15,650 nt of DNA, from the IMG/VR virus record IMGVR_UViG_2703718817_000011, one strand, 5' to 3'. This document shows, piece after piece, positions 166 through 14,058 of the stretch (its first letter is position 1; the number at the start of each line of letters is the position of its first letter). The notes below the pieces were generated by a model. The model saw only the letters and a list, made by a program, of their open reading frames with translations. It had not been told where the DNA came from and did not search any database. A program made the position numbers and the translations under genes. This DNA is from a virus. Taxonomy: Duplodnaviria > Heunggongvirae > Uroviricota > Caudoviricetes.

Positions 166-210
166 TTTAATTAAGCAATTTTCACTGAGAAAGTGCCAAA
201 ATTCGCAAAA

Positions 211-234
211 TGACTACACCAGTGACTACACCGT
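211..234. repeat. Tandem direct repeat, 2 x TGACTACACC on a 12-bp period, about 70 bp inside the left junction
   Basis: tgactacaccag / tgactacaccgt at 211-222 and 223-234, read directly. Confidence 0.5.
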
Positions 235-769: not shown

Positions 770-1051
770 TTACCGCCGTAACCGCTCCGGCTTCTTCCAG
801 TGATACGTGATTTTCTCCTTCTCCCGATACAGTTCAACGCGGCGATTGTAGGCCAGCATTTCCAGAACGCGGATCCGTATGTCGCGCATATCCGCATCAT
901 TAAGCTGGATACCATCACGGCGCATCACCTCAGCAACAACACGCGCATAATTTTCGGCTGTCACGCTGTCCGGCTGCGTGGTCTGTTCGTCAGCCTGCTG
1001 GCTGATTCCAGAGACGCGGCGGATTAATCGCAGTATTTCGGCTTCTGTCAT
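770..1051 (-). CDS. Hypothetical protein (93 aa), last gene of the packaging operon
   Basis: ATG at 1051 preceded by a GAGGT SD; starts 14 nt after the terL stop; no recognisable family. Confidence 0.5.
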   Translation of the reverse strand: MTEAEILRLIRRVSGISQQADEQTTQPDSVTAENYARVVAEVMRRDGIQLNDADMRDIRIRVLEMLAYNRRVELYREKEKITYHWKKPERLRR

Positions 1052-1064
1052 GCTGCTGACCTCA

Positions 1065-2726
1065 TTACACCCCGCTAAATTCTTCCAGTTTCTGGCGGTG
1101 GCTGTCGCTTATATCAAAAGCAAAATCCTCATGCTCTGCCTGGAATGTACCAAACGCCATCAGCGCCGCTACGCTCGGGTCTATCTTGTTCGGTGATTTT
1201 TTCTTGTTCGGCTTGATATTGGCGTTCGCGTCACTCTGCATCACGACGTTACTCATCGACCAGGACAACACCGGATCGCCACGATGCACAATCACCCTGC
1301 GGTTAACAAAAACTTCGAACGATTTCGCCGCCGGACTGAATCTGAGGTAGGTTTGCGGGAACGGCTCCACCTCAAAACCAGCCCCCTGTAATTGCGTCCT
1401 GAGATGCGTGGCGTTCCACGTATCAAAGCCCACCAGCCTGATATTAAATTTCTCCGCATCCTGCATGATGTCATCTCTGATCCGGTCGTAATCAATGCAG
1501 TCACCTGGCGTTGTGCGTATCCAGCCCGCTTTAGCCCACTGGCGATAGACAGCGCGGTTTTTATTGGCGGGGTTCTGTAGCTGGAACTCCGGCAGATAAT
1601 GACGGGAAACCAGCATGATATTTTTACCGACCGGAAAGGCATAGCACACGCTGGAAATATCGCTGGTTGATGATAAGTCCAGCCCCGCGTAACACTCCTG
1701 CCCGTGTAAATCTTCCTCCGTGAACGTTCCGGCACACTCAGCCCATGCGCCGTTACCCATCCACGGGGTAGCCCCCTGGCACCAGATATTAAATCGCTTT
1801 GTCATCATCTCCACCCATTGCGACGGAATACCCCGCGCTTTCTGGATGGTTGAGGCCAGTTTTTCACGATCCACGGAAACATCGATGTTAGGGTTAGCCT
1901 TTATCCACATCGCCGGATCATCAACCTCGTTTTCGTCGTCCAGCTCGTAAATCAGCACAAAAATTGAATCGTTGACCTCTTCGCCGTCCAGGATCTGGCA
2001 GCAATAATCATAGTGCTGTTTACAGGTTGAAACGACGTTACTGCCCGATGTGGTAATGGCAAATAACAGCCCTTCGGGACGTGCGCCCATCCCCAGCTCA
2101 AGCGCGGAATAAACGCCGTTATCGGGGTGTAGGTGGTATTCGTCCACGATGGAAAGGCTGGGGTTTGTTCCCTCGATGGTTGCCGCTTTTGCTGCCAGCG
2201 GCTTTAACAGGCTGTTGCTTTTCGGGTGCATCACCTTGTGGGCCTGAATATTCACCCGCCTGCGTAACGGTCGGGATAAAAGGCACATCTGACGCGCATC
2301 ATCAAAAACGATCCGCGCCTGGTCACGGCTCACCGCTGCGGTGTAAATATCCTGCTGCCCGTTCTCCATAATCAGAAACCAGTTAGCCAGAATCGCGGCG
2401 GTCGTGGATTTCGCATTTTTGCGCGGCACTTCGATAAAGGCGCTCGTGTATTTGCGCCGTCCGGTGGCCTTAACCTTAAAGCCGAGGATGCACGCAAAGG
2501 CGAACTGCTGCCACGGCTCCAGCTCAATGGGTCTGCCACGCATCGGCCCTTTTACGTGCGGGCACACCCTGGAAAAGGCAATAAACCGCTCCACAACCTC
2601 ACGATCGAACGTGTAAAGGGGGCTTTCAAGGTCCGAAAAGTACCGTTTAACGGCCTGTTTCAGCCGTTTACAGGCCGGAATTTTGCCCGTTTTTACGTCT
2701 TCTGCGTACTTATTCCAGGCGGTCAA
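1065..2726 (-). CDS. terL: Terminase large subunit (HK97-type)
   Basis: 553-aa ORF with an N-terminal ATPase Walker A-like segment (VPRKNAKSTTAA) and a C-terminal nuclease-like region; apparent TTG start at 2726 with an AGAGGA SD, overlapping the terS 3' end. Confidence 0.88.
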   Translation of the reverse strand: MTAWNKYAEDVKTGKIPACKRLKQAVKRYFSDLESPLYTFDREVVERFIAFSRVCPHVKGPMRGRPIELEPWQQFAFACILGFKVKATGRRKYTSAFIEVPRKNAKSTTAAILANWFLIMENGQQDIYTAAVSRDQARIVFDDARQMCLLSRPLRRRVNIQAHKVMHPKSNSLLKPLAAKAATIEGTNPSLSIVDEYHLHPDNGVYSALELGMGARPEGLLFAITTSGSNVVSTCKQHYDYCCQILDGEEVNDSIFVLIYELDDENEVDDPAMWIKANPNIDVSVDREKLASTIQKARGIPSQWVEMMTKRFNIWCQGATPWMGNGAWAECAGTFTEEDLHGQECYAGLDLSSTSDISSVCYAFPVGKNIMLVSRHYLPEFQLQNPANKNRAVYRQWAKAGWIRTTPGDCIDYDRIRDDIMQDAEKFNIRLVGFDTWNATHLRTQLQGAGFEVEPFPQTYLRFSPAAKSFEVFVNRRVIVHRGDPVLSWSMSNVVMQSDANANIKPNKKKSPNKIDPSVAALMAFGTFQAEHEDFAFDISDSHRQKLEEFSGV

Positions 2727-3066
2727 GCTCGTCCTCTTCTTCTGTTTCCGGTGGATTTTTACGGCGGCTTATCGGGTCAAAACCGAGCAAAGAGGCCATT
2801 TTTATCATCACTCTTTCAGCGTCGGATTTTGCGCTTAATGCGGGGTTTCTGCTCTCGCCGCCCTGACTGTTAACAATGCTGAACCCGCGCGCCGCAAGGT
2901 CTGCAACGGCTTTCCGGTAAATGGAGTAGTTGACACAATACAGTTCCAGATTGCTCCAGTCGGCGGGGGTCAGGTCTCCCCGTTCCGCAAGCTGCCTAGA
3001 TTTTTCCCGCCACTGCTTCACGGCGATATCATCCAGGTAGGCGGGGGCTTTCGGTGGTCTTGCCAT
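2710..3066 (-). CDS. terS: Terminase small subunit (P27 family-like)
   Basis: 118-aa ORF directly upstream of and overlapping terL; sequence resembles P27-family small terminase subunits (recollection). Confidence 0.75.
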   Translation of the reverse strand: MARPPKAPAYLDDIAVKQWREKSRQLAERGDLTPADWSNLELYCVNYSIYRKAVADLAARGFSIVNSQGGESRNPALSAKSDAERVMIKMASLLGFDPISRRKNPPETEEEDELDRLE

Positions 3067-3188
3067 GCTTATTTTTCGCCAGATTATTTTTCAAAAAATT
3101 CCCGTGCATAAAAATTTGAGGAGGCGTTCGGTGCCCGGCGGGGTCGGGTTGGTCCTGAAAACGCCCCCCACCCCGTCATACAGCCTCA

Positions 3189-3371
3189 TCAGCGATTGCG
3201 GAAACATTCCATAACCTCGCGGTCACGGTCGGTTAATCGCTTCGCTGTGATGCGTTCTGCGCGTCCTGACGCTTTATCTTTATGCCCTGTTTCCTGTGTC
3301 TTCCATGCGTCACGCTGCCTTATAAGTCCACGGATAAGGCGGTTTTGCTCCCGCTCATTCATCAGCGTCAT
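3189..3371 (-). CDS. Hypothetical small basic protein (about 60 aa) between HNH and terS
   Basis: Internal ATG at 3371 (or 3362) of track ORF 3189..3593, overlapping the HNH stop; highly charged sequence; weak SD. Confidence 0.3.
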   Translation of the reverse strand: MTLMNEREQNRLIRGLIRQRDAWKTQETGHKDKASGRAERITAKRLTDRDREVMECFRNR

Positions 3372-3795
3372 ACATCCAGTTATTGCGGTTAGCGGCCCGT
3401 TCTTCCTCTTCACGAAATCCACCTGCGGCACGCTTGCTTTTTGTTGCCGGATCAAGCCATTTCGTTTTCTGGTTATGACACGCCTGGCACAATGGTTGAT
3501 GGTTCCATTCGGGCCAGAAGAGAACATCATCACCGCCATTAATCGGGATAATGTGATCCACCACCACGGCGGGCGTATATATCCCCTTCTCAAGGCATCG
3601 CACGCATAACGGGTTTTTACTCAGATACATGGCGCGGTATTTGTCCCACTGTCTGGAATATCCACGCGCGCGGCGGTGTCCTCGTCTGGCATCCTCTGCA
3701 CGCCATGCCGCCCGCCTGTGCTCCTCACACTTGCCGGATTTAACGCGCCTGTTACAGCCTGGTTCTGTGCATCGTCTTAATGGTTGCCACGGCAT
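3355..3795 (-). CDS. HNH endonuclease (packaging-associated)
   Basis: 146 aa with paired Cys motifs and an HNH core (CxxC ... DHIIP ... N ... H ... CxxCH); located next to terS as in HK97-like cos phages; start overlaps the upstream stop. Confidence 0.85.
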   Translation of the reverse strand: MPWQPLRRCTEPGCNRRVKSGKCEEHRRAAWRAEDARRGHRRARGYSRQWDKYRAMYLSKNPLCVRCLEKGIYTPAVVVDHIIPINGGDDVLFWPEWNHQPLCQACHNQKTKWLDPATKSKRAAGGFREEEERAANRNNWMYDADE

Positions 3796-4091
3796 CAGTA
3801 CACCCCCACATCACGGTAAGCCGTCCAGAGTGCGCCTATCGTCATGGGTACGCGTGTTTTTGCGTTATCCGCGACAATCTGGCGATTTTCATACAGGTGA
3901 GCGATAAACATCATGCAGCCAATCTTTATGGCTGGCGTGAACTCCAGCCCGTCATCAAAGCGCCTGCCTATGTGTATCTGGCACGCCTCAAGCGATGCGG
4001 CAATGTATCCGCTGATTAACTGGTCTTCATCGTCGCCATCGATGCGGCAATGGAGTTTCACTTCTTCCAGGGTGATAAGTTCTTCTGTCAT
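3795..4091 (-). CDS. Head-tail connector protein (gp6-like DNA packaging protein)
   Basis: 98-aa ORF; N-terminal ITLEEVKLHCRIDGDDEDQLI pattern typical of gp6-like connectors (recollection); ATGA overlap with the upstream gene. Confidence 0.65.
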   Translation of the reverse strand: MTEELITLEEVKLHCRIDGDDEDQLISGYIAASLEACQIHIGRRFDDGLEFTPAIKIGCMMFIAHLYENRQIVADNAKTRVPMTIGALWTAYRDVGVY

Positions 4092-4426
4092 TTTTCCGCG
4101 CCCTCACGACAAAGAATTTCAAGGCGTGTCCTGGCGGCATCCGGCAGCGGCTGCCCGATGATATTCAGTACACGCCCCGCCAGCGGCCCCGTACTGACCT
4201 TTATCCGACTGGTGGCGTTGATGTCCTTCCGGTACCGTATCCAGATCCTTACGGTACCAATCGCCAGCTCTGCGCCCGATGAAATGGCCTCCTTGCTGCT
4301 GATCATGTTCACGCTTGCCCAGAGTGTGTGACCGTCCTCCCACGTTTCGAGTATTTCGCCCGTCATGGCTCTGGTCTGTTTCAGGGTCTGAATCGTTATC
4401 CTGTCACGCAGTCGCCCTATGTTCAT
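4088..4426 (-). CDS. Head closure / head-tail joining protein
   Basis: Start taken at the internal ATG 4426, which forms an ATGA overlap with the portal stop; begins MNIGRLRDRITIQ, a hallmark of the phage head-tail joining family. Confidence 0.65.
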   Translation of the reverse strand: MNIGRLRDRITIQTLKQTRAMTGEILETWEDGHTLWASVNMISSKEAISSGAELAIGTVRIWIRYRKDINATSRIKVSTGPLAGRVLNIIGQPLPDAARTRLEILCREGAEK

Positions 4427-5634
4427 TCCGGTTTTTCTCCCTCGCTGATTTTTACTTCCTGTTTCCATGCCTGGCTGAACTCATCACCACCATCACGCGG
4501 TGACAGTCCTTCACGTTCGCGGGCTTCGTTCGGACACATAACGCCGGATTTGATGCCGCGCTCATAGGTGGCAAAGCGTTCGCCAGGTGTGGCCCGTAAC
4601 AGGTCCGCGCTGTCAAACTCCACCTGATACCGGATACCAGGTACAGGCGAGGCCACCAGCAGGGCGTTTTTTATCTGCTGCTCAAAGTTCGCCAGCCACG
4701 GGCGCATCGTCATGGTGAGAAATGCGCGGCTTGCCTCGCTGAAATTGCTGTAGGTGCTGTTGCTGTATTCCTGCAAAAAAATCGGCGAGACGTTGAACAT
4801 TCGGGCGATGTCTTCAATGGTGAAGCGACGGGAGGCCAGCCATTCAGCATCCTGATTACTCATGCCCAGCTGCTGATAGCTCATACCCCCTTCAAGGATG
4901 GGCGTTTTTCCGGCGTTTCTGGCCCCTTTGTAGCGTTCCAGTGCGGCTAATGCCTGTTTGCCCTTCACGCCGTCCAGCCATTCGCCTGACGTGATAACCC
5001 CTGCCGCCATCATGCCATCACGCATCACGCTCGCGCCGTGGCGTTGTTGGGCCAGCCCAAGCCCCAGCGATTCGCGGCAGATGGTTACAGGTGAGCGCCC
5101 CATAAAGCCGTCATCCGTGGAGTAACGAAGGTGAAGTACTTCCCACGGTAAATAGTTGCGGGTGTTTCCGGTGTAGGCGTCAGTGATGCAGTAGCGCCAG
5201 TTGTGTTCGCCTGTCTGCTCCACGTTCACCGACTGCGGCGGGTAAGGATGTAAAGCCGCCGGAAAACCATCACGCCCCCACTGAATCACCGCATAAGCAT
5301 TACCGTTTAACAGGCAGTGGCGGATCATCATTCGCTTAAACTGGTAGGGGGTTTGCCATGCGTTCGGGCGCTCGTTGAGGATGTGATCGACCGGATGAGA
5401 ATCAAGCCACTCGCGGGCCTCCTTCCCCTTCTCATTGCGTACCAGGTACAGGTAACACGGCATGGTAGCCACCGCCTCAGAGATGACCGTGACGGCGTTC
5501 ATGACGGCGGGCAGTGATTCCGCTGTCCCCGATGATACGTACTCACCCGCCCCCGTGTTCGATGTGCCAGCCAGCGCCATAAATTCATCAAGCGTCATGC
5601 TGCGCTGCTCTTTTTTTCTTCTGAAAGGCCACAT
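4423..5634 (-). CDS. Portal protein (HK97 family)
   Basis: 403-aa ORF with portal-family features; GGGGGTG SD upstream of ATG 5634; starts immediately after the protease stop. Confidence 0.88.
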   Translation of the reverse strand: MWPFRRKKEQRSMTLDEFMALAGTSNTGAGEYVSSGTAESLPAVMNAVTVISEAVATMPCYLYLVRNEKGKEAREWLDSHPVDHILNERPNAWQTPYQFKRMMIRHCLLNGNAYAVIQWGRDGFPAALHPYPPQSVNVEQTGEHNWRYCITDAYTGNTRNYLPWEVLHLRYSTDDGFMGRSPVTICRESLGLGLAQQRHGASVMRDGMMAAGVITSGEWLDGVKGKQALAALERYKGARNAGKTPILEGGMSYQQLGMSNQDAEWLASRRFTIEDIARMFNVSPIFLQEYSNSTYSNFSEASRAFLTMTMRPWLANFEQQIKNALLVASPVPGIRYQVEFDSADLLRATPGERFATYERGIKSGVMCPNEAREREGLSPRDGGDEFSQAWKQEVKISEGEKPE

Positions 5635-5635
5635 A

Positions 5636-6208
5636 TCACACCCCCGCTAAATCCACCCACCAGCGGCGATTATCCGCACGCGGCATTTTTTCGGGGTGCT
5701 GCTCATACAGGGAACGGCGGGCCAGCTCCACGCCGGAATCAGGGTAAGCCGGAACGGATGTAACGGTAATTTCGTACAGTTCCGCCACCAGCACGGTGCG
5801 CACGCATGGATCTGTTGTGGTATCCCATACATCCTTACGGGAACGAAAGCCAAAGCTCATGCCGGATATATCACCACGTTTAACCAGTTCGATAACGTCG
5901 CGCCCTGTGCTGGTATCCGGTGGGGTCAGTTCAAAGCGTAACCCTGTTTCGTCCTCTTCCAGTTTCAGCGTGCCGGAACGGGTACGCCCCAGTAACATGC
6001 TGTGGTCATGCTCATACAGGCCGCGAACGTCATTACCCGCTGCAAGCCATTCAGTAAACGCTCCCCGCTGGAATTTTTCGTAAAACTCACCCCATAACAG
6101 TTCTGAAAGCTTATCCCAGCGAACAACGTAGCCCGTCAGCGTACCGGCTCCGCTGGTGGTGATTTCCGATGACCGGATTTCCATACTCTTCATAATTTTT
6201 TCACCCAT
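5636..6208 (-). CDS. Prohead maturation protease (HK97 family, S78)
   Basis: 190 aa with YEHDHSMLLGRT and ISGMSFGF motifs typical of HK97 prohead proteases; alternative starts at 6193 or 6184. Confidence 0.82.
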   Translation of the reverse strand: MGEKIMKSMEIRSSEITTSGAGTLTGYVVRWDKLSELLWGEFYEKFQRGAFTEWLAAGNDVRGLYEHDHSMLLGRTRSGTLKLEEDETGLRFELTPPDTSTGRDVIELVKRGDISGMSFGFRSRKDVWDTTTDPCVRTVLVAELYEITVTSVPAYPDSGVELARRSLYEQHPEKMPRADNRRWWVDLAGV

Positions 6209-6237
6209 AAAACACTAAAGGGGCTTTTAAGCCCCTT
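6204..6237 (-). terminator. Intrinsic terminator-like hairpin after the capsid gene (minus strand)
   Basis: AAGGGGC / GCCCCTT stem at 6218-6237 followed on the minus strand by a U-rich run (UAGUGUUUUAUG). Confidence 0.4.
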
Positions 6238-6247
6238 CTGTATGCTG

Positions 6248-7405
6248 TTAATCGTCGTCCTGTGGCAGTTCCAGAATCTTGATCGCGTTCGAATCCACCA
6301 CGCCACCGCCTAAATATTTCTGCGTGAAAATTTTGATGAAGCCCGGCTCTGTGAGGTTGTCCGGTCTGGTGCGAACACCTGTTTCGTGATCAACAATGTA
6401 GTAACCGCGTTTGAAGTCACCCAGGGCAATAACGTTATCAGGCATAAACTCCAGATATTCGACCGGAAGGCCCAGCAACGTATCAGGATCACCCGCCTGT
6501 AAACGGTCGCGCCAGATGTAATCACCGTTCGCGTTCTTCACCTTCTGAAGTTTTGCCGCCGTCGTGGAGTTAACCACCCAGACCGCGTTTTTGCGGTATT
6601 TTTTACGTAATGCAAATTTCAGGTCGATCAACGGGTCCGCAGATGTCCACGCCAGAGATTCGGAAGGTTTAATTACCTGCAACGTACCAAAATCACGCTC
6701 TTTGTCGTTCTTCTCTGCACGGGGTACGGATAAAAAACCTTTTGCTTTTTTGTCACCGTCGCCCACAACCAGATCGCTTTCTTCGGTTTCCGTGAAGGTG
6801 TCGCCAATCTCACCCGTCAGCCATGAAAGGATGTCCACATCGGAAAAATCCACGATTTCCTGTGTGGTGCGCGGGTACGCATAGACCGGATACAGCTTAA
6901 TGCTCACCTCGTTAATCTGCGGGGTGCTGGTCTGTTCGCGTGTCTTACCCTCTTCACCGTGGTTAACGGTCGCACCGCCAGCGGAAACAAGCTGCTTAAA
7001 CTCGTTGCTGCTGATTTTCTTCACGGTACAGATGCGGCGCATGGTGGACTCATCCGCCAGCATTCGCATGATTTCGGTGTTCAGCTCGGGGATAACGGTA
7101 TAACCACCATCAGCGGGAACGCCTGTACTTAATGCGCGGGTTTCACCCGTCAGAATGTAGTTTCGTAGTTCTGCGGGGTCAGTGGTCTGACTGCTTTTAC
7201 CTGGCTTGCTGCGCTCTTCGTCTGCAATGGCTTCAAGGCGGGAAATGTCTTTATCGAGGGATTCAGCTTTAGCGCGTAATTCGTCAAATTTTGCGCCCTC
7301 AGCATCGTTAAGACTGCGGTTTTCTTTTTCCGCGTTCTCCAGCATGTCACGCATCTGATTTTTAATGGCGGTTTTCTGCTGGCGTAATTCGATTATTCTC
7401 TGCAT
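6248..7405 (-). CDS. Major capsid protein (HK97 fold) with N-terminal coiled-coil delta/scaffold domain
   Basis: ATG at 7405 (the track ORF extends to a TTG at 7450); N-terminal coiled coil about 70 aa long followed by a capsid-family body (GGYTVIPELNTEI...). Confidence 0.88.
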   Translation of the reverse strand: MQRIIELRQQKTAIKNQMRDMLENAEKENRSLNDAEGAKFDELRAKAESLDKDISRLEAIADEERSKPGKSSQTTDPAELRNYILTGETRALSTGVPADGGYTVIPELNTEIMRMLADESTMRRICTVKKISSNEFKQLVSAGGATVNHGEEGKTREQTSTPQINEVSIKLYPVYAYPRTTQEIVDFSDVDILSWLTGEIGDTFTETEESDLVVGDGDKKAKGFLSVPRAEKNDKERDFGTLQVIKPSESLAWTSADPLIDLKFALRKKYRKNAVWVVNSTTAAKLQKVKNANGDYIWRDRLQAGDPDTLLGLPVEYLEFMPDNVIALGDFKRGYYIVDHETGVRTRPDNLTEPGFIKIFTQKYLGGGVVDSNAIKILELPQDDD

Positions 7406-7443
7406 AAAAAAAAGTCCTGGGGTTAAGTAAGGAACTCCAGGAC
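7406..7443 (-). promoter_or_regulatory. Leader hairpin plus U8 tract abutting the capsid start codon (attenuator or SD-sequestering structure)
   Basis: Minus strand reads GUCCUGGAG-loop-CCCCAGGAC then UUUUUUUU then AUG; the only SD-like AGGA lies inside the 3' arm of the stem. Confidence 0.45.
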
Positions 7444-7620
7444 GCGGCAAACACTCAACCGTTTTTCATAAGGAAATCAGCAATCGCACCGATCGTTTTC
7501 CCGCCTGGTAATGAATATTGGCGGGCACATTAACAGGCGGGAAAGTGGCCCCAGCGTCCTGGCACCACGGGCGAGAATAATCATGATTCAGTTCGGGTAA
7601 AATATGCCGATCCGCTCAGT

Positions 7621-7650
7621 GAACAACGTGGAACAACCACGAACAAATAA
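7621..7650 (-). repeat. Three helically phased TTGTTC repeats upstream of the packaging operon
   Basis: Plus strand gaacaacgtg gaacaaccac gaacaaataa; minus strand reads TTGTTC at a 10-bp period; related to the repeats at 251-270 and 14341-14390. Confidence 0.5.
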
Positions 7651-7653
7651 TTT

Positions 7654-7686
7654 ACAAAAAATAACAAAAAGCCGGATTGCTCCGGC
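7654..7686 (-). terminator. Intrinsic terminator after the perC-like gene
   Basis: GCCGGA-ttgc-TCCGGC stem at 7671-7686 followed on the minus strand by UUUUUGUUAUUUUUUG. Confidence 0.55.
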
Positions 7687-7692
7687 TGTTGA

Positions 7693-7965
7693 TTAGCTGT
7701 CTGTGTAATTACGCCATATTTCATCGCTTACACCATCCATACCCATTTCAGCATAAGTGCGATCGACTGCCTTTCTCAGGTCTCCGAAGTTATCCGGCGG
7801 CTCCGGTGGCCTCTGTGCCTTCCTGGAACATTCCAGCCGTCGCATCGTAACCTGATGCCGTTCCTTGTCTGTCTCCACCAGTTGCATGACTTCACCCCAT
7901 CGCGCCGCCGCCCTCCGGTAAAAGCCTTTTGCCTCGAGTTCCTCCGCTATGCGGTCATGTGCCAT
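7693..7965 (-). CDS. PerC-family transcriptional regulator homologue
   Basis: Start at ATG 7965 with a GAGGGGG SD; contains the YRRAAARW motif characteristic of PerC/Pch proteins (recollection). Confidence 0.65.
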   Translation of the reverse strand: MAHDRIAEELEAKGFYRRAAARWGEVMQLVETDKERHQVTMRRLECSRKAQRPPEPPDNFGDLRKAVDRTYAEMGMDGVSDEIWRNYTDS

Positions 7966-7975
7966 CGTCACCCCC

Positions 7976-8386
7976 TCAGAACGGAATATCATCACCGTAA
8001 GGGTCATCGCCTCCCGCTGGTGGCTGATTACCCTGTGTGCCTGTGGCTTTGCGTCTGTTCCCGCCAGGACGTGCCGCGCGGGCACTGATTACGCTGTCCG
8101 CAATAACCTGATACCCCTGCCGTGTTTCCCCGTTCTGTCCGGTCCACTGGCTTACCTGCATCGTGCCGGATACGCTGGCAACATCGCCTTTTTGATGTTT
8201 AGCCAGGAAATCGGCCTGTTTGCCAAATGCGATAACCGATAACCATAACGTCGCCTGTCCGTCATGTGCCTGGCTGCATGGCAACGATACCGCCATACGC
8301 GCCAGAGTCATCGGTGTGCCCTTGCTGCTCTGTTTTACCAGCGGGTCGTCCACCAGCCGCCCGTAAGCTGCAATTTGTGCTGTCAT
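7976..8386 (-). CDS. ssb: Single-stranded DNA-binding protein
   Basis: 136 aa with an OB-fold-like N-terminal region, a Gly/Pro-rich linker and the C-terminal acidic tail DDIPF; GAGGTGG SD. Confidence 0.85.
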   Translation of the reverse strand: MTAQIAAYGRLVDDPLVKQSSKGTPMTLARMAVSLPCSQAHDGQATLWLSVIAFGKQADFLAKHQKGDVASVSGTMQVSQWTGQNGETRQGYQVIADSVISARAARPGGNRRKATGTQGNQPPAGGDDPYGDDIPF

Positions 8387-8395
8387 ATTGCCACC

Positions 8396-8701
8396 TCAGT
8401 GAAGCGATCCGGCGTTGTTCTTTTTCATCTCTTCCATCATTTTTTCAGTGAGCATTACGCACTGAAAACCCATGCTTTTGATGTCTACGGGTTTCATGCC
8501 TTTGTCTGTGGATATCACAGGCAGAATATCCTGATACACATCGCGGTCAGGGTAACTAAGCACACAAAGCGCCCATGATGCCACGGGTGAGGATCCTTCG
8601 TCTGTTTCAACCCACCAGCCTGGTGTAGCTGCGCTTATTTGCAGAATCGTGATCCGTCCGTTGTGCTTGTAAAATTTTTCACCAAATTTTGGTTCGCTCA
8701 T
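8396..8701 (-). CDS. Hypothetical protein (101 aa)
   Basis: ORF with an ATGA overlap to the upstream gene; 10-nt gap to ssb; no recognisable family. Confidence 0.5.
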   Translation of the reverse strand: MSEPKFGEKFYKHNGRITILQISAATPGWWVETDEGSSPVASWALCVLSYPDRDVYQDILPVISTDKGMKPVDIKSMGFQCVMLTEKMMEEMKKNNAGSLH

Positions 8702-8949
8702 GATTCCACCTCTCCGGTTTTAACGTTGATTGTTGTTACCTGTTCCGCTTCGGCAATCTCCCGTTCTGTCAGCGTGGCAAAGTTTGCCGCCGCTGTGGTC
8801 ATGAATGCGCTTATCAGTTCGGGATGCTCCTTCGCGTATCCTTCCCCCGCGTGGCGGTCTATCGTTCTGATTGCCACCTTTAAAGCGTGCTCTGTCATGT
8901 CTAACGCTTTATATTTTGGCTGTGTTCTGTCTCTGCGTTTTTGTGTCAT
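8698..8949 (-). CDS. Hypothetical protein (83 aa)
   Basis: Start taken at the internal ATG 8949 (GGTGGGGAG SD); the upstream part of track ORF 8698..9144 overlaps the iteron region and is probably non-coding. Confidence 0.4.
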   Translation of the reverse strand: MTQKRRDRTQPKYKALDMTEHALKVAIRTIDRHAGEGYAKEHPELISAFMTTAAANFATLTEREIAEAEQVTTINVKTGEVES

Positions 8950-8950
8950 C

Positions 8951-9155
8951 TCCCCACCTATACCCACTTTTACTCCCCACTTTTCACAATTCCCCATCTC
9001 GTTAAAGGCGTGGGATTTGTAATTTTTATCATGCTGTTTCATAAGGATTTTTTTGCTCCCCACTTTTTGGGATGTATACAGGTCAAAAAGTGGGGGATTG
9101 TGTTTAAATTTTGTTAAATTCCCCATACCCACCACTTTTGCCACCCACTTTTTAC
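8951..9155. repeat. Putative replication origin: CCCCACTTTT-type iterons flanking an AT-rich segment
   Basis: At least six copies of CCACTTTT in both orientations (about 8965, 8977, 9060, 9084 inverted, 9133, 9146) around an AT-rich stretch at 9011-9056, immediately 3' of the replication gene. Confidence 0.5.
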
Positions 9156-10561
9156 AGTGGCCCTACATCATCGCCGTCAACATAGATAACGCCGTCTTTT
9201 TCCAGCTTGCCCAGCCAGCGCCGGAAGTGCTTTATTTCGTACCCCAGTTTTTTCATGTCATCACGTAACAGCGGGATCGTGCACTTGTCGCCGTTCTGTG
9301 TGCGTGAACGGATACACCCCCATAGCGCGGTATGGTTTTCCGTCTTGTTGCCTGCCTCTTCGATGCGCTCCAGTTCAACGGGAGGGCGCGGCTTATCCAC
9401 CACCACCAGCGACGTGATTAACTCCCCGTCAGCGTCGGTAAAAAGCTCCACCACCCGCAAATCATAGGCAGCCTCTTTGAGTTCCTCCGCGTCCTTCATT
9501 TTGGTGCATGAGATAACCAGCGCTTCGCTTCCTGCGTCCTCCCTGCGTATCCGGTATTCAGCATCCAGTGATGCACGAAATGCACTGGAACCGCGCGCGC
9601 CTTTCGTCTCATCCTTGCCGGAATGGTGAACCACCAGCACCGTGGCCCCTGTGCGTCGTTTCAGTTCGTCACACCCACGGATAAACGCCCCCATGTCGCG
9701 GGAGTCATTTTCATCATTGCCGCCAAAGCAGCGCGCCAGCGTGTCCAGAATAATCATGCGAACAGGTTTACCCGTTTCCCTCTCCACCTGACTGGCAGCA
9801 ATAACCAGTTCATCAACATCAAGCGGGACAGCCGGAAAGATGGGACGGTTTACCAGATACAGATTTTTCACCTGCTCACCGTGCACAACCTCCCAGGCTT
9901 TTACACGACGCGGAACGCCGATACCGCCTTCACCAACCACATAGAGAACAGCGCCATGCGCCACCCTGCGGCCTCCCCACTGGCGGCCCGTGGAAACGTG
10001 ACACGCCCACGATCCGGCAAGGAATGATTTATAGGAACCGCTCGCCCCGTATATGCTGCAAAGCGACGATGCCGGAATAATCCCCTTTACCACGTAATCA
10101 AGTTGTGTGTCGTATCCGGTAGATCCAACGCTCATCGGTAGCGTGGTTTTTCGCTGGGGGATTTTTTTCATGACCAGGCTTTCCCCGCGTTCCCATGCCT
10201 CCCTAAGCCGTGGAAGCTGGTCGCTCCATTCCTCCAGCAATTCGAAATTTTCAGAAAGTAGCCGCGCCTCCTGGACTCCGGCGATCGCCAGTTTCGTGGC
10301 GATGGTTAACAGCTGCGGCTCTTCAATATTTCCGGCGCGTATCACCGTCGCCCTGTATCGCCCATCATCAACAATCTGGAGGTTATCCAGTTCGCTTAAC
10401 TGATAACGCCCCAGATAAACGGGAGGGACTGGATCGCCTGCTTTTTTGGCCTGTGCAATGATGTAATGCTCTGCGAATGAGTGAGCATCAATACCCGCAA
10501 AAATAATCGCATCGGTGTATTTGTCTTTCGGTAATAGTTTTACGTTCGGTGCCAGTTTCAT
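9152..10561 (-). CDS. Replication initiator/helicase-type ATPase (AAA_25/RepA-like), candidate PICI Pri-Rep
   Basis: 469 aa with Walker A GASGSYKS, Walker B-like MIILDTL and an HHSGK motif typical of AAA_25 RecA-like replication proteins; N-terminal domain about 150 aa of unknown type. Confidence 0.7.
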   Translation of the reverse strand: MKLAPNVKLLPKDKYTDAIIFAGIDAHSFAEHYIIAQAKKAGDPVPPVYLGRYQLSELDNLQIVDDGRYRATVIRAGNIEEPQLLTIATKLAIAGVQEARLLSENFELLEEWSDQLPRLREAWERGESLVMKKIPQRKTTLPMSVGSTGYDTQLDYVVKGIIPASSLCSIYGASGSYKSFLAGSWACHVSTGRQWGGRRVAHGAVLYVVGEGGIGVPRRVKAWEVVHGEQVKNLYLVNRPIFPAVPLDVDELVIAASQVERETGKPVRMIILDTLARCFGGNDENDSRDMGAFIRGCDELKRRTGATVLVVHHSGKDETKGARGSSAFRASLDAEYRIRREDAGSEALVISCTKMKDAEELKEAAYDLRVVELFTDADGELITSLVVVDKPRPPVELERIEEAGNKTENHTALWGCIRSRTQNGDKCTIPLLRDDMKKLGYEIKHFRRWLGKLEKDGVIYVDGDDVGPL

Positions 10562-11757: not shown

Positions 11758-12307
11758 GGCGCACCTCCTGACGAATACGGGCGGCAAATACAGCAACACA
11801 ACCGGACGGGCAACGGTTACGCGCTTCGCGTTCCGTCCAGGCGGTTACGTGGATGATTTGATGGTCTGACGCGCCAAAGGCAATAAAGCGCCAGATAAAG
11901 GCTGTTTGAGAATGTACGAGGGCAGGGGTAGTAGCCATGTTGGCAGCCTCCTCAGTGTGGTTAAGATAACCGCCACGCAAAAGGCTAATTTCGCTGGTGG
12001 CGGACTGTACAGGGTTAGCCTTACCGGACACTGAAGAAACCGGCGCGGATTGCTCCGCCCCCGTACAGCCCACCATTGATAAGGTGTGACTATGCGGCAC
12101 AAAAAAACACGCGGGACGCGTGCTGTGCGCTTCAGTTGTTTTCAGGAGGCTAATCCCGACACCCGTTTTATGAGGTGCGCGGGAATCATAGCTATTTTCG
12201 ACACTGGCGATCAACTGGTTTTTTTCTCCGATATTCAGGGCCAGAAAACGCCACACAAAGGCAGTTTGTGTGTGTACAAGGTGTGGTATATGATTTACAG
12301 CAACCAT
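11750..12307 (-). CDS. Icd-like (P4 host cell division inhibitor-like) protein with tandem duplicated domain and internal start
   Basis: ATG 12307 with an AGGAG SD; two copies of an LVH(T/S)QTAF(V/I)WRF segment; second in-frame ATG at 11938 has its own GAGGAGG SD; Icd-like call from recollection of P4-like island proteins. Confidence 0.5.
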   Translation of the reverse strand: MVAVNHIPHLVHTQTAFVWRFLALNIGEKNQLIASVENSYDSRAPHKTGVGISLLKTTEAHSTRPACFFVPHSHTLSMVGCTGAEQSAPVSSVSGKANPVQSATSEISLLRGGYLNHTEEAANMATTPALVHSQTAFIWRFIAFGASDHQIIHVTAWTEREARNRCPSGCVAVFAARIRQEVRHD

Positions 12308-12398
12308 AACGGCTCCTAGTTTACGTTGTTGGTTAGAAGCCCTGCGAGTGGTAACGACACTTGCGGGGCTTTGTCTTTTCATCGATTACCTTGATAAA

Positions 12399-12487
12399 GG
12401 TGTCAGCCACTATATTAGTAACGGGTGTCAGCCACGTCAATAGTGTTTTTCCGTTTTCTTGTGTGTATACTGTCAGCCACCTAATAA
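12399..12487. promoter_or_regulatory. Divergent promoter/operator region with three direct repeats of GGTGTCAGCCAC
   Basis: Repeats at 12399-12410, 12424-12435 and 12470-12480; minus-strand TTGACG-17nt-TAATAT (12435-12440 and 12412-12417) with a repeat in the spacer; plus-strand TATACT (12466-12471) or TTGTGT-17nt-TAATAA. Confidence 0.45.
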
Positions 12488-12501
12488 CGAGGAAATCAGA
12501 T

Positions 12502-12681
12502 ATGGCAACAAAAGCAGTTAATGCAAAATCCAAAAAGCTTGAGGCTCGAGTACCACACGCAATAGCTGATGCTGTAGAAAATTTAAAGGAAGATGGCGAA
12601 AGTACAGGGCAATTTATCGTTTCGGCACTTGAAGGCGAGATCAAACGCCGCCAGCGCCGCAAGGCCAAAGAATCAGAATAA
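12502..12681 (+). CDS. Ribbon-helix-helix (CopG/Arc-like) DNA-binding protein, 59 aa
   Basis: ATG 12502 with a GGAA SD; predicted beta-strand/helix/helix layout (KLEARVPHAIADAVENLKEDGESTGQFIVSALEGEIKRR); divergent from the replication operon. Confidence 0.55.
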   Translation: MATKAVNAKSKKLEARVPHAIADAVENLKEDGESTGQFIVSALEGEIKRRQRRKAKESE

Positions 12682-12738
12682 TCACTATCAGCGCCGTGGT
12701 GTGAGGTACTACGGCGCATTGCTTTACAGGGCAGTATC

Positions 12739-12966
12739 ATGACCAACAACACACTATCACCAATACAAGACACGCAAACGCAAGATGATGAATTCATCCG
12801 GCAAAGGCAGTCAGAAGCCTGCGCCAGACTTGAGGAAGAACTAACCAGAACAAAAATACCACCACCAGCGCCGCGCTTAGTGCCACCAGAAAAATTTGCC
12901 CTTGAAGATTTTGTCGATAAATACCCACGGCGGCTTAAATCCGGCAAAAACCGACCGCCAGGATGA
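12739..12966 (+). CDS. Small protein of unknown function (75 aa), partner of the upstream RHH gene
   Basis: ATG 12739 follows the conserved 44-nt hairpin element; paralogous to 13423..13626. Confidence 0.45.
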   Translation: MTNNTLSPIQDTQTQDDEFIRQRQSEACARLEEELTRTKIPPPAPRLVPPEKFALEDFVDKYPRRLKSGKNRPPG

Positions 12967-13084
12967 GTGCACAAAACCGAACTATGAAACGGATTATTCC
13001 GTTTCCGGGGCGTTTGTGTGTGTATAAAGAGTAAGCTATGCTCTTTTATAGCCATAATCGTTCCTCAATTAATGGTTTGGTTAG

Positions 13085-13128
13085 ACGCCCCGTATGTGTT
13101 CCCATCACTGCGGGGCGTTGTTTTTTGT
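13085..13128 (+). terminator. Intrinsic terminator after the first RHH module
   Basis: 8-bp GC-rich stem ACGCCCCG / CGGGGCGT followed by TGTTTTTTG. Confidence 0.5.
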
Positions 13129-13185
13129 GCTAGTTGTGTGTAATGTGTATATACACATAAACACATTATATGGGGTGTAATTGAC

Positions 13186-13365
13186 GTGTCAACACACAAA
13201 AATGAAAGGCGTGGTAATCCTCCTTTCCAGTTCCGTTTAGATCCTGACTTACGGGAAAAGATGGAAAAAGCACAACAACAAGACGGTGATGACTCTTTAG
13301 CTGCTTGGATAAAACGAATAATCCGAAAAGAATTACAGCAACGCGGTATTGAACCCAAAGAATAA
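13186..13365 (+). CDS. Arc-like ribbon-helix-helix protein, about 59 aa (start uncertain, GTG proposed)
   Basis: Not in the ORF track (below 60 aa with a non-ATG start); hand translation gives VSTHKNERRGNPPFQFRLDPDLREKMEKAQQQDGDDSLAAWIKRIIRKELQQRGIEPKE, resembling P22 Arc; GGGGTG SD-like 8 nt upstream. Confidence 0.5.
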   Translation: MSTHKNERRGNPPFQFRLDPDLREKMEKAQQQDGDDSLAAWIKRIIRKELQQRGIEPKE

Positions 13366-13869: not shown

Positions 13870-14058
13870 TTAGTGAACTGCCTTGCAGCTATCCTTCCAG
13901 GCCAAAACCTCAGATAAAGACCAGCCAACAGAACGCCCACCAAGTTTACGACGTGATGGGAATTGTCCGGCCTTTTCCAGGCGGTAGCGGCATGAGCGGC
14001 TAAGGCCTGTTAGCTTTTCGCATTCTTTTTCACGTATAAACCGATCAGTGCTTAACAC
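13870..14058 (-). CDS. alpA: AlpA-family phage regulatory protein (excisionase/transcriptional regulator-like)
   Basis: 62 aa, apparent GTG start with an AAGGGGG SD; winged-helix excisionase-like sequence (LTGLSRSCRYRLEKAGQFP ... GWSLSEVLAW); downstream of and co-directional with int. Confidence 0.78.
   Translation of the reverse strand: MLSTDRFIREKECEKLTGLSRSCRYRLEKAGQFPSRRKLGGRSVGWSLSEVLAWKDSCKAVH

Follow-up and report, generated by a model that had tools for sequence, protein, structure and literature searches.

A capsid-first packaging operon in a satellite island of Escherichia coli and its place among capsid-forming satellites

The 15,650-nucleotide stretch of viral DNA analyzed here (IMG/VR record IMGVR_UViG_2703718817_000011; henceforth termed the window, always at its full length) carries a packaging operon in which the genes for capsid, protease and portal are transcribed in this order, the reverse of that found in HK97-type phages. 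We read it as the packaging operon of a 15.3-kb capsid-forming phage-inducible chromosomal island (cf-PICI) of the EcCIEDL933 clade, integrated in tqsA, whose gene order is ancestral and fixed in the clade rather than the result of a local rearrangement; we put the probability of this reading at roughly 0.92. Among tailed phages, the synteny of the head module is one of the most conserved features. A lineage in which the head order was reversed on one strand and then frozen represents a natural system for asking how operon order relates to virion stoichiometry, a question whose answer would be an incremental advance and not a new kind of system. The capsid-first order itself, reported in an original prediction made from the letters of the window, is correct but had already been published as a conserved satellite hallmark and is not new. 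That reader had nonetheless recognized both the capsid-forming satellite and its diagnostic synteny.

Gene order of the packaging module and its distribution

Family assignments were obtained by Pfam and PHROGs profile searches. All eight functions of the original prediction (capsid, protease, portal, head closure, connector, HNH endonuclease, TerS and TerL, in order of transcription) scored above the curated Pfam cut-offs, and none of the assignments changed. A short open reading frame (ORF) of 60 amino acids (aa) between the HNH and TerS genes and a terminal hypothetical gene complete the operon:

6248 to 7405, minus strand: major capsid protein of the HK97 fold family, first operon gene (PF05065 Phage_capsid, E=2e-61; phrog_10 major head protein, E=5e-88)
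5636 to 6208, minus strand: prohead serine protease S78 (PF04586 Peptidase_S78, E=7e-48; phrog_80)
4423 to 5634, minus strand: portal (PF04860 Phage_portal, E=2.5e-90; phrog_12, E=4e-116), starting 1 nt past the protease stop
4088 to 4426, minus strand: head closure protein Hc1, HK97 gp7-like (PF05521, E=9e-23; phrog_25), with a 4-nt overlap with portal
3795 to 4091, minus strand: gp6-like head-tail adaptor Ad1 (PF05135, E=6e-12; phrog_40, E=8e-36), with a 4-nt overlap with Hc1
3355 to 3795, minus strand: HNH endonuclease (PF01844; phrog_144, E=8e-45)
3189 to 3371, minus strand: conserved 60-aa ORF, annotated in RefSeq (phrog_3173, E=7.5e-37), with a 17-nt overlap with the HNH gene end
2710 to 3066, minus strand: TerS, P27 family (PF05119, E=1e-23; phrog_83)
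1065 to 2726, minus strand: TerL with ATPase and nuclease domains (PF03354 and PF20441; phrog_9, E=6e-179), with a 17-nt overlap with TerS
770 to 1051, minus strand: conserved 93-aa hypothetical protein, last operon gene (phrog_1561, E=1.5e-55), co-linear in E. coli relatives

Positions 3355 to 7405, capsid through HNH, coincide with RefSeq coding sequence boundaries in a 99.9% identical E. coli record, and TerS and TerL lie just outside this segment, at 1065 to 3066. In cf-PICI papers, Hc1 is named "adaptor" and Ad1 "connector". HNH endonucleases are packaging accessories in HK97-type cos systems. The genes downstream of capsid are separated by 1-nt gaps or overlap by 1–17 nt, a tight packing that is consistent with translational coupling. 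The 60-aa ORF is found at 37–100% identity in most Enterobacterales relatives and in none of the Pasteurellales loci.

In HK97, the corresponding genes run TerS-TerL-portal-protease-major capsid protein-Ad1-Hc1, followed by a gp10-family protein, the tail terminator and the tail genes. The tail-encoding phages nearest by capsid, Pseudomonas phages VW-6S and D14E (37–40% identity), are ordered (HNH)-TerS-TerL-portal-protease-capsid-connector-tail, with the HNH gene directly upstream of TerS in D14E, in agreement with the layout assumed as canonical in the original prediction. Relative to HK97, the capsid/protease/portal core of the satellite stands in reverse order and the Hc1/Ad1 pair is likewise swapped, while the internal order HNH-TerS-TerL is kept. 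The argument that no cyclic permutation of the canonical order yields capsid-protease-portal is sound. The description of the module as "inverted", however, is a misnomer: because all satellite genes share one strand, the change is a gene-by-gene permutation and no inversion. A simple inversion is excluded as its origin since it would keep the transcription order inside the block, and a deletion in a concatemer or dimer is excluded because it yields cyclic permutations only; the order needs at least three transpositions or two rounds of duplication and loss. At the protein level, Hc1 is 48% identical to HK97 gp7 over its full length, and TerL and portal are only 26–27% identical to their HK97 counterparts.

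Relatives were collected from IMG/VR (58 loci) and from one-genome-per-species bacterial assemblies (80 loci); 146 loci in all were compared, their genes being ordered by tblastn with the window proteins. Capsid precedes portal in 98 loci, 23 loci are canonical, 25 are too short to score, and no other arrangement was encountered. All capsid-first loci share at least 41% capsid identity with the window and all canonical loci at most 40%, with identity stepping from at least 56% (41–42% in two Alteromonadaceae islands) to at most 40%. The capsid-first hosts belong to four gammaproteobacterial orders, comprising Enterobacterales (Providencia, Proteus, Xenorhabdus, Photorhabdus, Erwinia, Kluyvera, Rahnella, Kosakonia, Pantoea, Serratia, Enterobacter and Phytobacter), Orbales (Frischella and Gilliamella), many genera of Pasteurellales and two genera of Alteromonadales. 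In E. coli, the packaging module (1065–7450) is present in 538 of 5426 complete genomes (~10%). Its occurrence in these genomes and in 98 loci from four orders shows that the order is no quirk of a strain or an assembly. A protein search with the capsid returned, among its top 120 matches, only relatives of at least 66% identity, and the boundary to phages was located instead by genome scan and alignment.

Capsid-first and canonical loci are separated by a single split in the trees of capsid (100/100), portal (85/100) and TerL (100/100), all of which are neighbor-joining trees of sequences at the level of high-scoring segment pairs with sampling biased to near relatives. The capsid and TerL phylogenies thereby bear out the suggestion that the rearranged module might be a hallmark of a satellite lineage, as does the published gene order of Proteobacterial cf-PICIs, capsid-protease-portal-connectors followed by hnh-terS-terL (Alqurainy et al., bioRxiv 10.1101/2022.09.08.507074).

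Among the surveyed loci, Hc1 is the most variable gene of the module. In two of them (L044 and L051), portal and protease are 95–100% identical to those of the window, yet Hc1 shares 51–54% and Ad1 68–73% identity. The tail-docking genes Hc1 and Ad1 thus form a recombination hot spot, consistent with their published role in tail specificity.

Several loci showed peculiarities of their own. Three copies with 46–52% capsid identity (L121, L123 and L124) were considered as evolutionary intermediates and rejected, being frameshifted, decaying copies from one Pasteurellaceae assembly. This assembly, Pasteurellaceae bacterium Macca, holds several module copies with frameshifts in capsid, portal, HNH and TerL, which are either decaying satellites or the product of low assembly quality. 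An apparent capsid-protease duplication in L070 proved to be a scaffold gap. An E. coli-type island (L044, 11131–14564) contains a tandem duplication of a 3'-capsid fragment, protease and portal (~2.2 kb) free of N-runs; it is either real, in which case the module undergoes tandem duplication, or an assembly artefact. The most divergent capsid-first islands, at 41–42% capsid identity and ~9–10 kb, come from Paraglaciecola chathamensis (L118, 4540–14508) and Aliiglaciecola sp. (L119, 5333–14435). Their layout runs from an integrase to capsid-protease-portal-(HNH)-TerS-like, with chromosomal genes directly after, and neither tblastn nor Pfam detected TerL, Hc1 or Ad1. By their gene content, these may be reduced capsid-forming satellites that use the TerL and connectors of a helper, a type of which we found no description in the cf-PICI literature. 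In two IMG/VR contigs of 58–62 kb (L045 and L049), a complete cf-PICI lies between prophage-like HNH-TerS (34–37%) and TerL-portal (30–32%); the satellite seems to have entered a resident prophage within the latter's packaging module, and it resembles published "helper-embedded" satellites.

The island and its kinship with EcCIEDL933

The window is 99.7–99.9% identical to chromosomal islands of several E. coli strains, and in E. coli RM10042 (record L001, 99.9% identical) tqsA is interrupted by the island. It spans from the att core (207–233) to the integrase start (15650), and nearly all of its long ORFs lie on the minus strand. The second att copy is located just past the integrase, outside the window. 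Beyond the packaging operon, the island carries:

207 to 233, plus strand: att core (AAAATGACTACACCAGTGACTACACCG), a 27-nt direct repeat with 15,300-bp spacing in L001
14433 to 15650, minus strand: tyrosine integrase (PF00589, PF13356 Arm-DNA-bind_3) at the opposite island end
13870 to 14058, minus strand: AlpA-like excisionase/regulator (phrog_2790 "excisionase and transcriptional regulator", E=1.7e-17)
9152 to 10561, minus strand: RepA-type helicase, AAA_25 (E=3e-43; PHROG helicase-primase families)
7976 to 8386: SSB (profile match)
7693 to 7965, minus strand: PerC-family transcriptional activator (PF06069, E=7e-44), directly upstream of the capsid operon

Homologues of PerC/Pch are regulators of the LEE island in pathogenic E. 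coli. The terminal tyrosine integrase defines the element as an integrated satellite. All sequence-testable features by which cf-PICIs are delimited are present in the window (He et al., 10.1101/2025.02.11.637232): 15.3 kb between the direct repeats in L001, within the size range of ~10–18 kb; a regulation module with the AlpA-like protein and an additional Ash-family/repressor-like ORF; and a replication module with the RepA-type helicase and SSB. The Methods of the same work list this series of packaging genes for the family. An HK97-like phage or prophage is not what the window contains, given the absence of tail and lysis genes and the permuted head order, nor is a classical PICI, given the presence of portal, Hc1, Ad1 and TerL; SatelliteFinder forbids portal and connector genes for PICIs (De Sousa et al., PMC10085698). 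The profile scans of the ORFs, with the small ORFs at ~12100–13300 not scanned individually, detected no tail or lysis family, and the RefSeq record of 99.9% identity lists no such gene either.

Two repeat arrangements were observed elsewhere in the island. A 17-mer, TTTTRCYMCCCACTTTT, occurs three times, 83–85 bp apart, at ~8968–9152 (L001 13152–13336), immediately downstream of the RepA-type helicase gene; these copies are likely iterons of a replication origin. A 75-nt direct repeat (80% identity, 684 bp apart; window ~12300–13260, L001 16498–17256) encloses two cassettes of small genes that resemble each other (YlcI/YnfO family and a hypothetical gene) and lie on the plus strand of an otherwise minus-strand island, and the AT skew changes sign across this segment.

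The closest named relative is an island of an O157:H7 strain (L002) located between phoQ and roxA. Over the full 6386 bp, its module is 97.4% identical to that of the window; its proteins are 94–100% identical, the capsid protein 99%. Because its size of ~15.4 kb and its gene content match the published element, we infer that it is EcCIEDL933, the prototype cf-PICI. A homologous capsid protein bears the database name "capsid protein of prophage CP-933C". EcCIEDL933 forms its own T=4 capsid, packages only island DNA with its HNH-TerS-TerL, and borrows nothing but tails. All genes of its packaging module but one are essential for transfer, the loss of hypothetical gene 1792 reduces transfer severely (10.1101/2022.09.08.507074), and none of these genes is required for replication. 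The two connector genes set tail specificity (10.1101/2025.02.11.637232). The organization of cf-PICIs was described as "very conserved" in a SatelliteFinder survey that detected them in 13% of Enterobacteriaceae genomes (PMC10085698), in line with the ~10% of E. coli genomes found here.

Non-coding elements and the working of the operon

Four non-coding elements lie within or next to the operon:

7670 to 7687, minus strand: terminator-like hairpin with T-run (7 pairs, 5 of them GC; tail TTTTGTTATT), immediately after the PerC-family gene
7621 to 7646, minus strand: three phased TTGTTC repeats with a 10-bp period, ~220–240 nt upstream of the capsid ATG in the 287-bp spacer; putative late-operon operator
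6217 to 6238, minus strand: GC-rich hairpin (GAAGGGGCT-loop-AGCCCCTTT) with U-rich tail in the 39-nt capsid–protease spacer
3080 to 3176, minus strand: conserved non-coding block (GGGGTGGGGGG ... ACCRCCCGCCCCCTCAAATTTTTAYGCACGG..ATTTTTTTGAAAATA) of ~100 nt just upstream of TerS; putative cos

The first hairpin marks the boundary between the capsid operon and the genes before it. The pattern TTGTTC-N4-TTGTTC with at most one mismatch has 5 matches against 0.14 expected; a degenerate TTGTTC triple lies beside the att core at 250–275 and another site at 12838–12853 (minus strand). Most E. coli relatives have the repeats in this same place, and several Pasteurellaceae islands carry other phased motifs at the same position of -210 to -250; since the search for exact three-fold phased repeats was stringent, a result of "none" in many loci is no proof of absence. 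The recurrence of the motif beside att suggests that one DNA-binding protein, plausibly the AlpA-like excisionase/activator, may act at both the capsid spacer and att.

The capsid–protease hairpin has a minimum free energy of -17.3 kcal/mol (z=-3.9; none of 200 shuffles as stable), and a hairpin of the GGGGC/GCCCC type, in most cases followed by a U-tract, is found in 60 of 63 distinct spacers of relatives, out to Pasteurellales and Alteromonadales. It is a putative leaky terminator or mRNA-stabilizing element. What distinguishes the satellite is the location of the capsid-plus-hairpin unit at the operon head, where partial termination would lower all downstream genes.

In HK97-type phages, the HNH and TerS genes flank cos. 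In an alignment of 17 diverse islands, the block at 3080–3176 is kept from Enterobacterales to Pasteurellales while its flanks diverge. Two virion-derived records break in or beside the spacer upstream of TerS: the right end of LR881103 falls inside a conserved G-rich motif and its left end lacks ~70 nt of the block, while PQ569648 breaks inside the 60-aa ORF. These ends support a position near here and no exact cut site; judged from its conservation and placement, the block is likely the cos site.

From these elements and from what has been demonstrated for EcCIEDL933, the following working of the operon can be proposed. Induction of a helper prophage would lead to excision and replication of the island, as shown for EcCIEDL933 and extrapolated to this sibling. 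By the same analogy, the island's own capsid, protease and portal would build small T=4 capsids, its HNH-TerS-TerL would package island DNA only, and Hc1 and Ad1 would dock helper tails. The operon is predicted to be a separate transcription unit starting in the 287-bp spacer after the terminator of the PerC-family gene, with the phased TTGTTC repeats before the operon and beside att as possible sites of the AlpA-like excisionase/activator. Capsid would be expressed first, ahead of the conserved hairpin with its U-tract and the tightly packed or overlapping downstream genes, so that the order would broadly follow the decreasing abundance of the components in the virion and close with the enzymes. 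With the putative cos placed in the conserved block that separates TerS from the 60-aa ORF, the HK97-type junction HNH|cos|TerS-TerL would remain intact, and only the morphogenetic genes would have been permuted, from portal-protease-capsid to capsid-protease-portal and from Ad1-Hc1 to Hc1-Ad1. Taken further, the permuted order might be a functional redesign, in which a single activator-dependent late promoter, possibly AlpA-controlled via the phased repeats that also flank att, drives capsid first and, together with a conserved leaky terminator behind the capsid gene and translational coupling, sets capsid far above protease, protease above portal and connectors, and these above terminase, for a minimal 6.6-kb operon. 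Such a design would account for the fixity of the arrangement in four bacterial orders, but we regard it as a tentative idea and rather unlikely. The word "promoter" does not occur in the cf-PICI preprint, and the cf-PICI literature we found does not address a stoichiometry model.

Several points count against our account of the operon. On the minus strand, a sigma-70 scan upstream of capsid yielded no promoter-like site, and overall counts were below shuffle expectation; the capsid-operon promoter may be activator-dependent. In HK97, too, a putative terminator is annotated directly behind the capsid gene, so the hairpin is inherited and no satellite innovation, and the capsid-plus-hairpin unit is ancestral. 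From 20 capsid–protease spacers, RNAalifold derived no consensus structure, as loops of differing length put the arms out of register, and single-sequence folds were used instead; as the stem is nearly invariant, it offers too little covariation to prove a structural role. Recruitment of the loci relied on capsid similarity, which leaves a small canonical set biased to near relatives, and the island used to connect the window with EcCIEDL933 comes from O157:H7 strain TT12B and not from EDL933 itself.

The strongest competing explanation is that the order has no regulatory meaning: the module would have been shuffled once in the ancestor of the clade, for example by tandem duplication or concatemer formation with differential loss, after which the packed operon blocked further rearrangement. 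A single origin, visible as one split in three gene trees, agrees with such an accident, as do the Firmicutes cf-PICIs, which work with portal-protease-capsid and show that capsid-first is not required, and the occurrence of the post-capsid hairpin in HK97. The tandem duplication in L044 would indicate that module duplications may occur, although it could be an assembly artefact, and the neck genes of Pasteurella Pmp8 are still more scattered. Conversely, the order tracks virion stoichiometry, its first gene being followed by a conserved hairpin, and it is kept strictly in four or more bacterial orders, at capsid identities as low as 41% and even in reduced islands of 9–10 kb, a pattern that fits selection and also constraint. 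Sequence alone cannot decide between an accident preserved by constraint, which we hold to be close to an even bet, and an adaptive gradient of stoichiometry, which we consider doubtful.

Other readings and comparison with known systems

If capsid-protease-portal were common in ordinary HK97-like phages, the order would be uninformative on satellites. Four records in the phage collection have a capsid of at least 57% identity, and all four place capsid before portal. Of these, however, LR881103 (L003, "Escherichia phage vB_KppS-Ant"; 16.5 kb with integrase and primase) and OR544139 (L004, "Pasteurella phage Pmp8"; 15.3 kb with an integrase-like region and primase) are satellites deposited as phages, and OR850982 is a 3.8-kb capsid-first fragment. 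The fourth, PQ569648 (L065, "Klebsiella phage P12620-1"), spans 106 kb with sparse annotation, and its final 16 kb consist of a whole cf-PICI that reaches the end of the record. This satellite is permuted to run from TerS to HNH and breaks off 4 nt short of the stop codon of the 60-aa ORF, and unrelated DNA lies upstream of its TerS; the record is likely a chimeric assembly of phage and satellite. Every tail-encoding phage examined (VW-6S, D14E, HK97, YeP1-3, SfIV and two vB_EcoM phages) is canonical, as are VIT_AJPSC, near-identical to SfIV, and all 23 loci at or below 40% capsid identity, with distant phage groups outside the sample. The original prediction had named a common occurrence in such phages as grounds for abandoning its claim, and we consider this reading improbable. 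Within the sample, the capsid-protease-portal order is a cheap and perfectly discriminating marker of Proteobacterial cf-PICIs against true HK97-like prophages. Such cf-PICIs often carry a "phage" or "cryptic prophage" annotation, and the marker exposed LR881103, OR544139 and PQ569648 as mislabelled or chimeric.

Two of these records hold unexpected genes. In LR881103, a 765-aa protein right after TerL (L003, 2036–4333) is an end-to-end match to a tape measure family (phrog_2854, E=2e-176), with no other tail genes annotated beside it; its presence in a tail-less satellite is unexplained. OR544139 has a tail-terminator homologue (phrog_37; L004, 14914–15321) upstream of capsid and a Neck1/tail-completion homologue (phrog_5; 8244–8702) after TerL, a placement that leaves its neck genes more scattered still relative to HK97.

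Islands of this kind have historically been annotated as cryptic prophages, and the window might accordingly be a decaying prophage remnant such as CP-933C, with an odd order due to deletions and rearrangements. The CP-933C name of the homologous capsid, the absence of tail and lysis genes and the frameshifted copies in one Pasteurellaceae genome speak for such decay. The ORFs of the module are nonetheless intact, tightly packed and conserved across many genera and, within E. coli, in 538 genomes; deletions cannot turn a gene order around on a single strand; function has been demonstrated experimentally for the near-identical module of EcCIEDL933; and virion-derived records of relatives exist, which together make decay very improbable. 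That the capsid and portal labels are swapped, which would turn the order into a simple cyclic permutation of the canonical one, is suggested by little more than two proteins of ~400 aa flanking a 190-aa protease and can hardly be true, since 6248–7405 matches Phage_capsid and 4423–5634 Phage_portal with no cross-hits, in agreement with RefSeq.

Our preferred reading, a cf-PICI with a clade-wide capsid-first order, places the window closest to the EcCIEDL933-type island, with which it shares the gene order, a similar size (15.3 vs 15.4 kb), the AlpA-like regulator, SSB and PerC-family genes. The two differ in location (tqsA vs between phoQ and roxA), in integrases that are only 90% identical, in the replication protein (RepA-type AAA_25 helicase in the window, DUF927 primase-type protein in the O157:H7 island) and in accessory genes. 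The window island is thus a mosaic sibling of EcCIEDL933 and not the same element.

HK97, VW-6S and D14E use the same protein families as the window for all eight functions. HK97-like phages share the HNH-dependent cos-type layout, in which the genome ends lie between HNH and TerS, and HK97 also has a hairpin directly after its capsid gene. Unlike the satellite, these phages carry tail and lysis genes after Hc1. Capsid identity to the nearest phages is at most 40%, portal and TerL are 26–32% identical to those of VW-6S, D14E and HK97, and the published capsid geometry is T=4 for cf-PICIs vs T=7 for the phages.

Firmicutes cf-PICIs (Bacillus/Clostridium/Staphylococcus and Lactococcus/Enterococcus) share, by published description, the lifestyle and a similar minimal gene set. 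Their clades retain portal-protease-capsid, placed before or after HNH-TerS-TerL; the three cf-PICI clades separate in capsid and TerL phylogenies, and the Firmicutes clades are of independent origin (Alqurainy et al., 10.1101/2022.09.08.507074). The classical Gram-negative PICIs EcCICFT073 and EcCIED1a have the int-alpA-replication backbone and the dependence on a helper phage in common with the window island, whereas they lack capsid, portal, connector and TerL, and remodel or redirect the capsids of their helpers.

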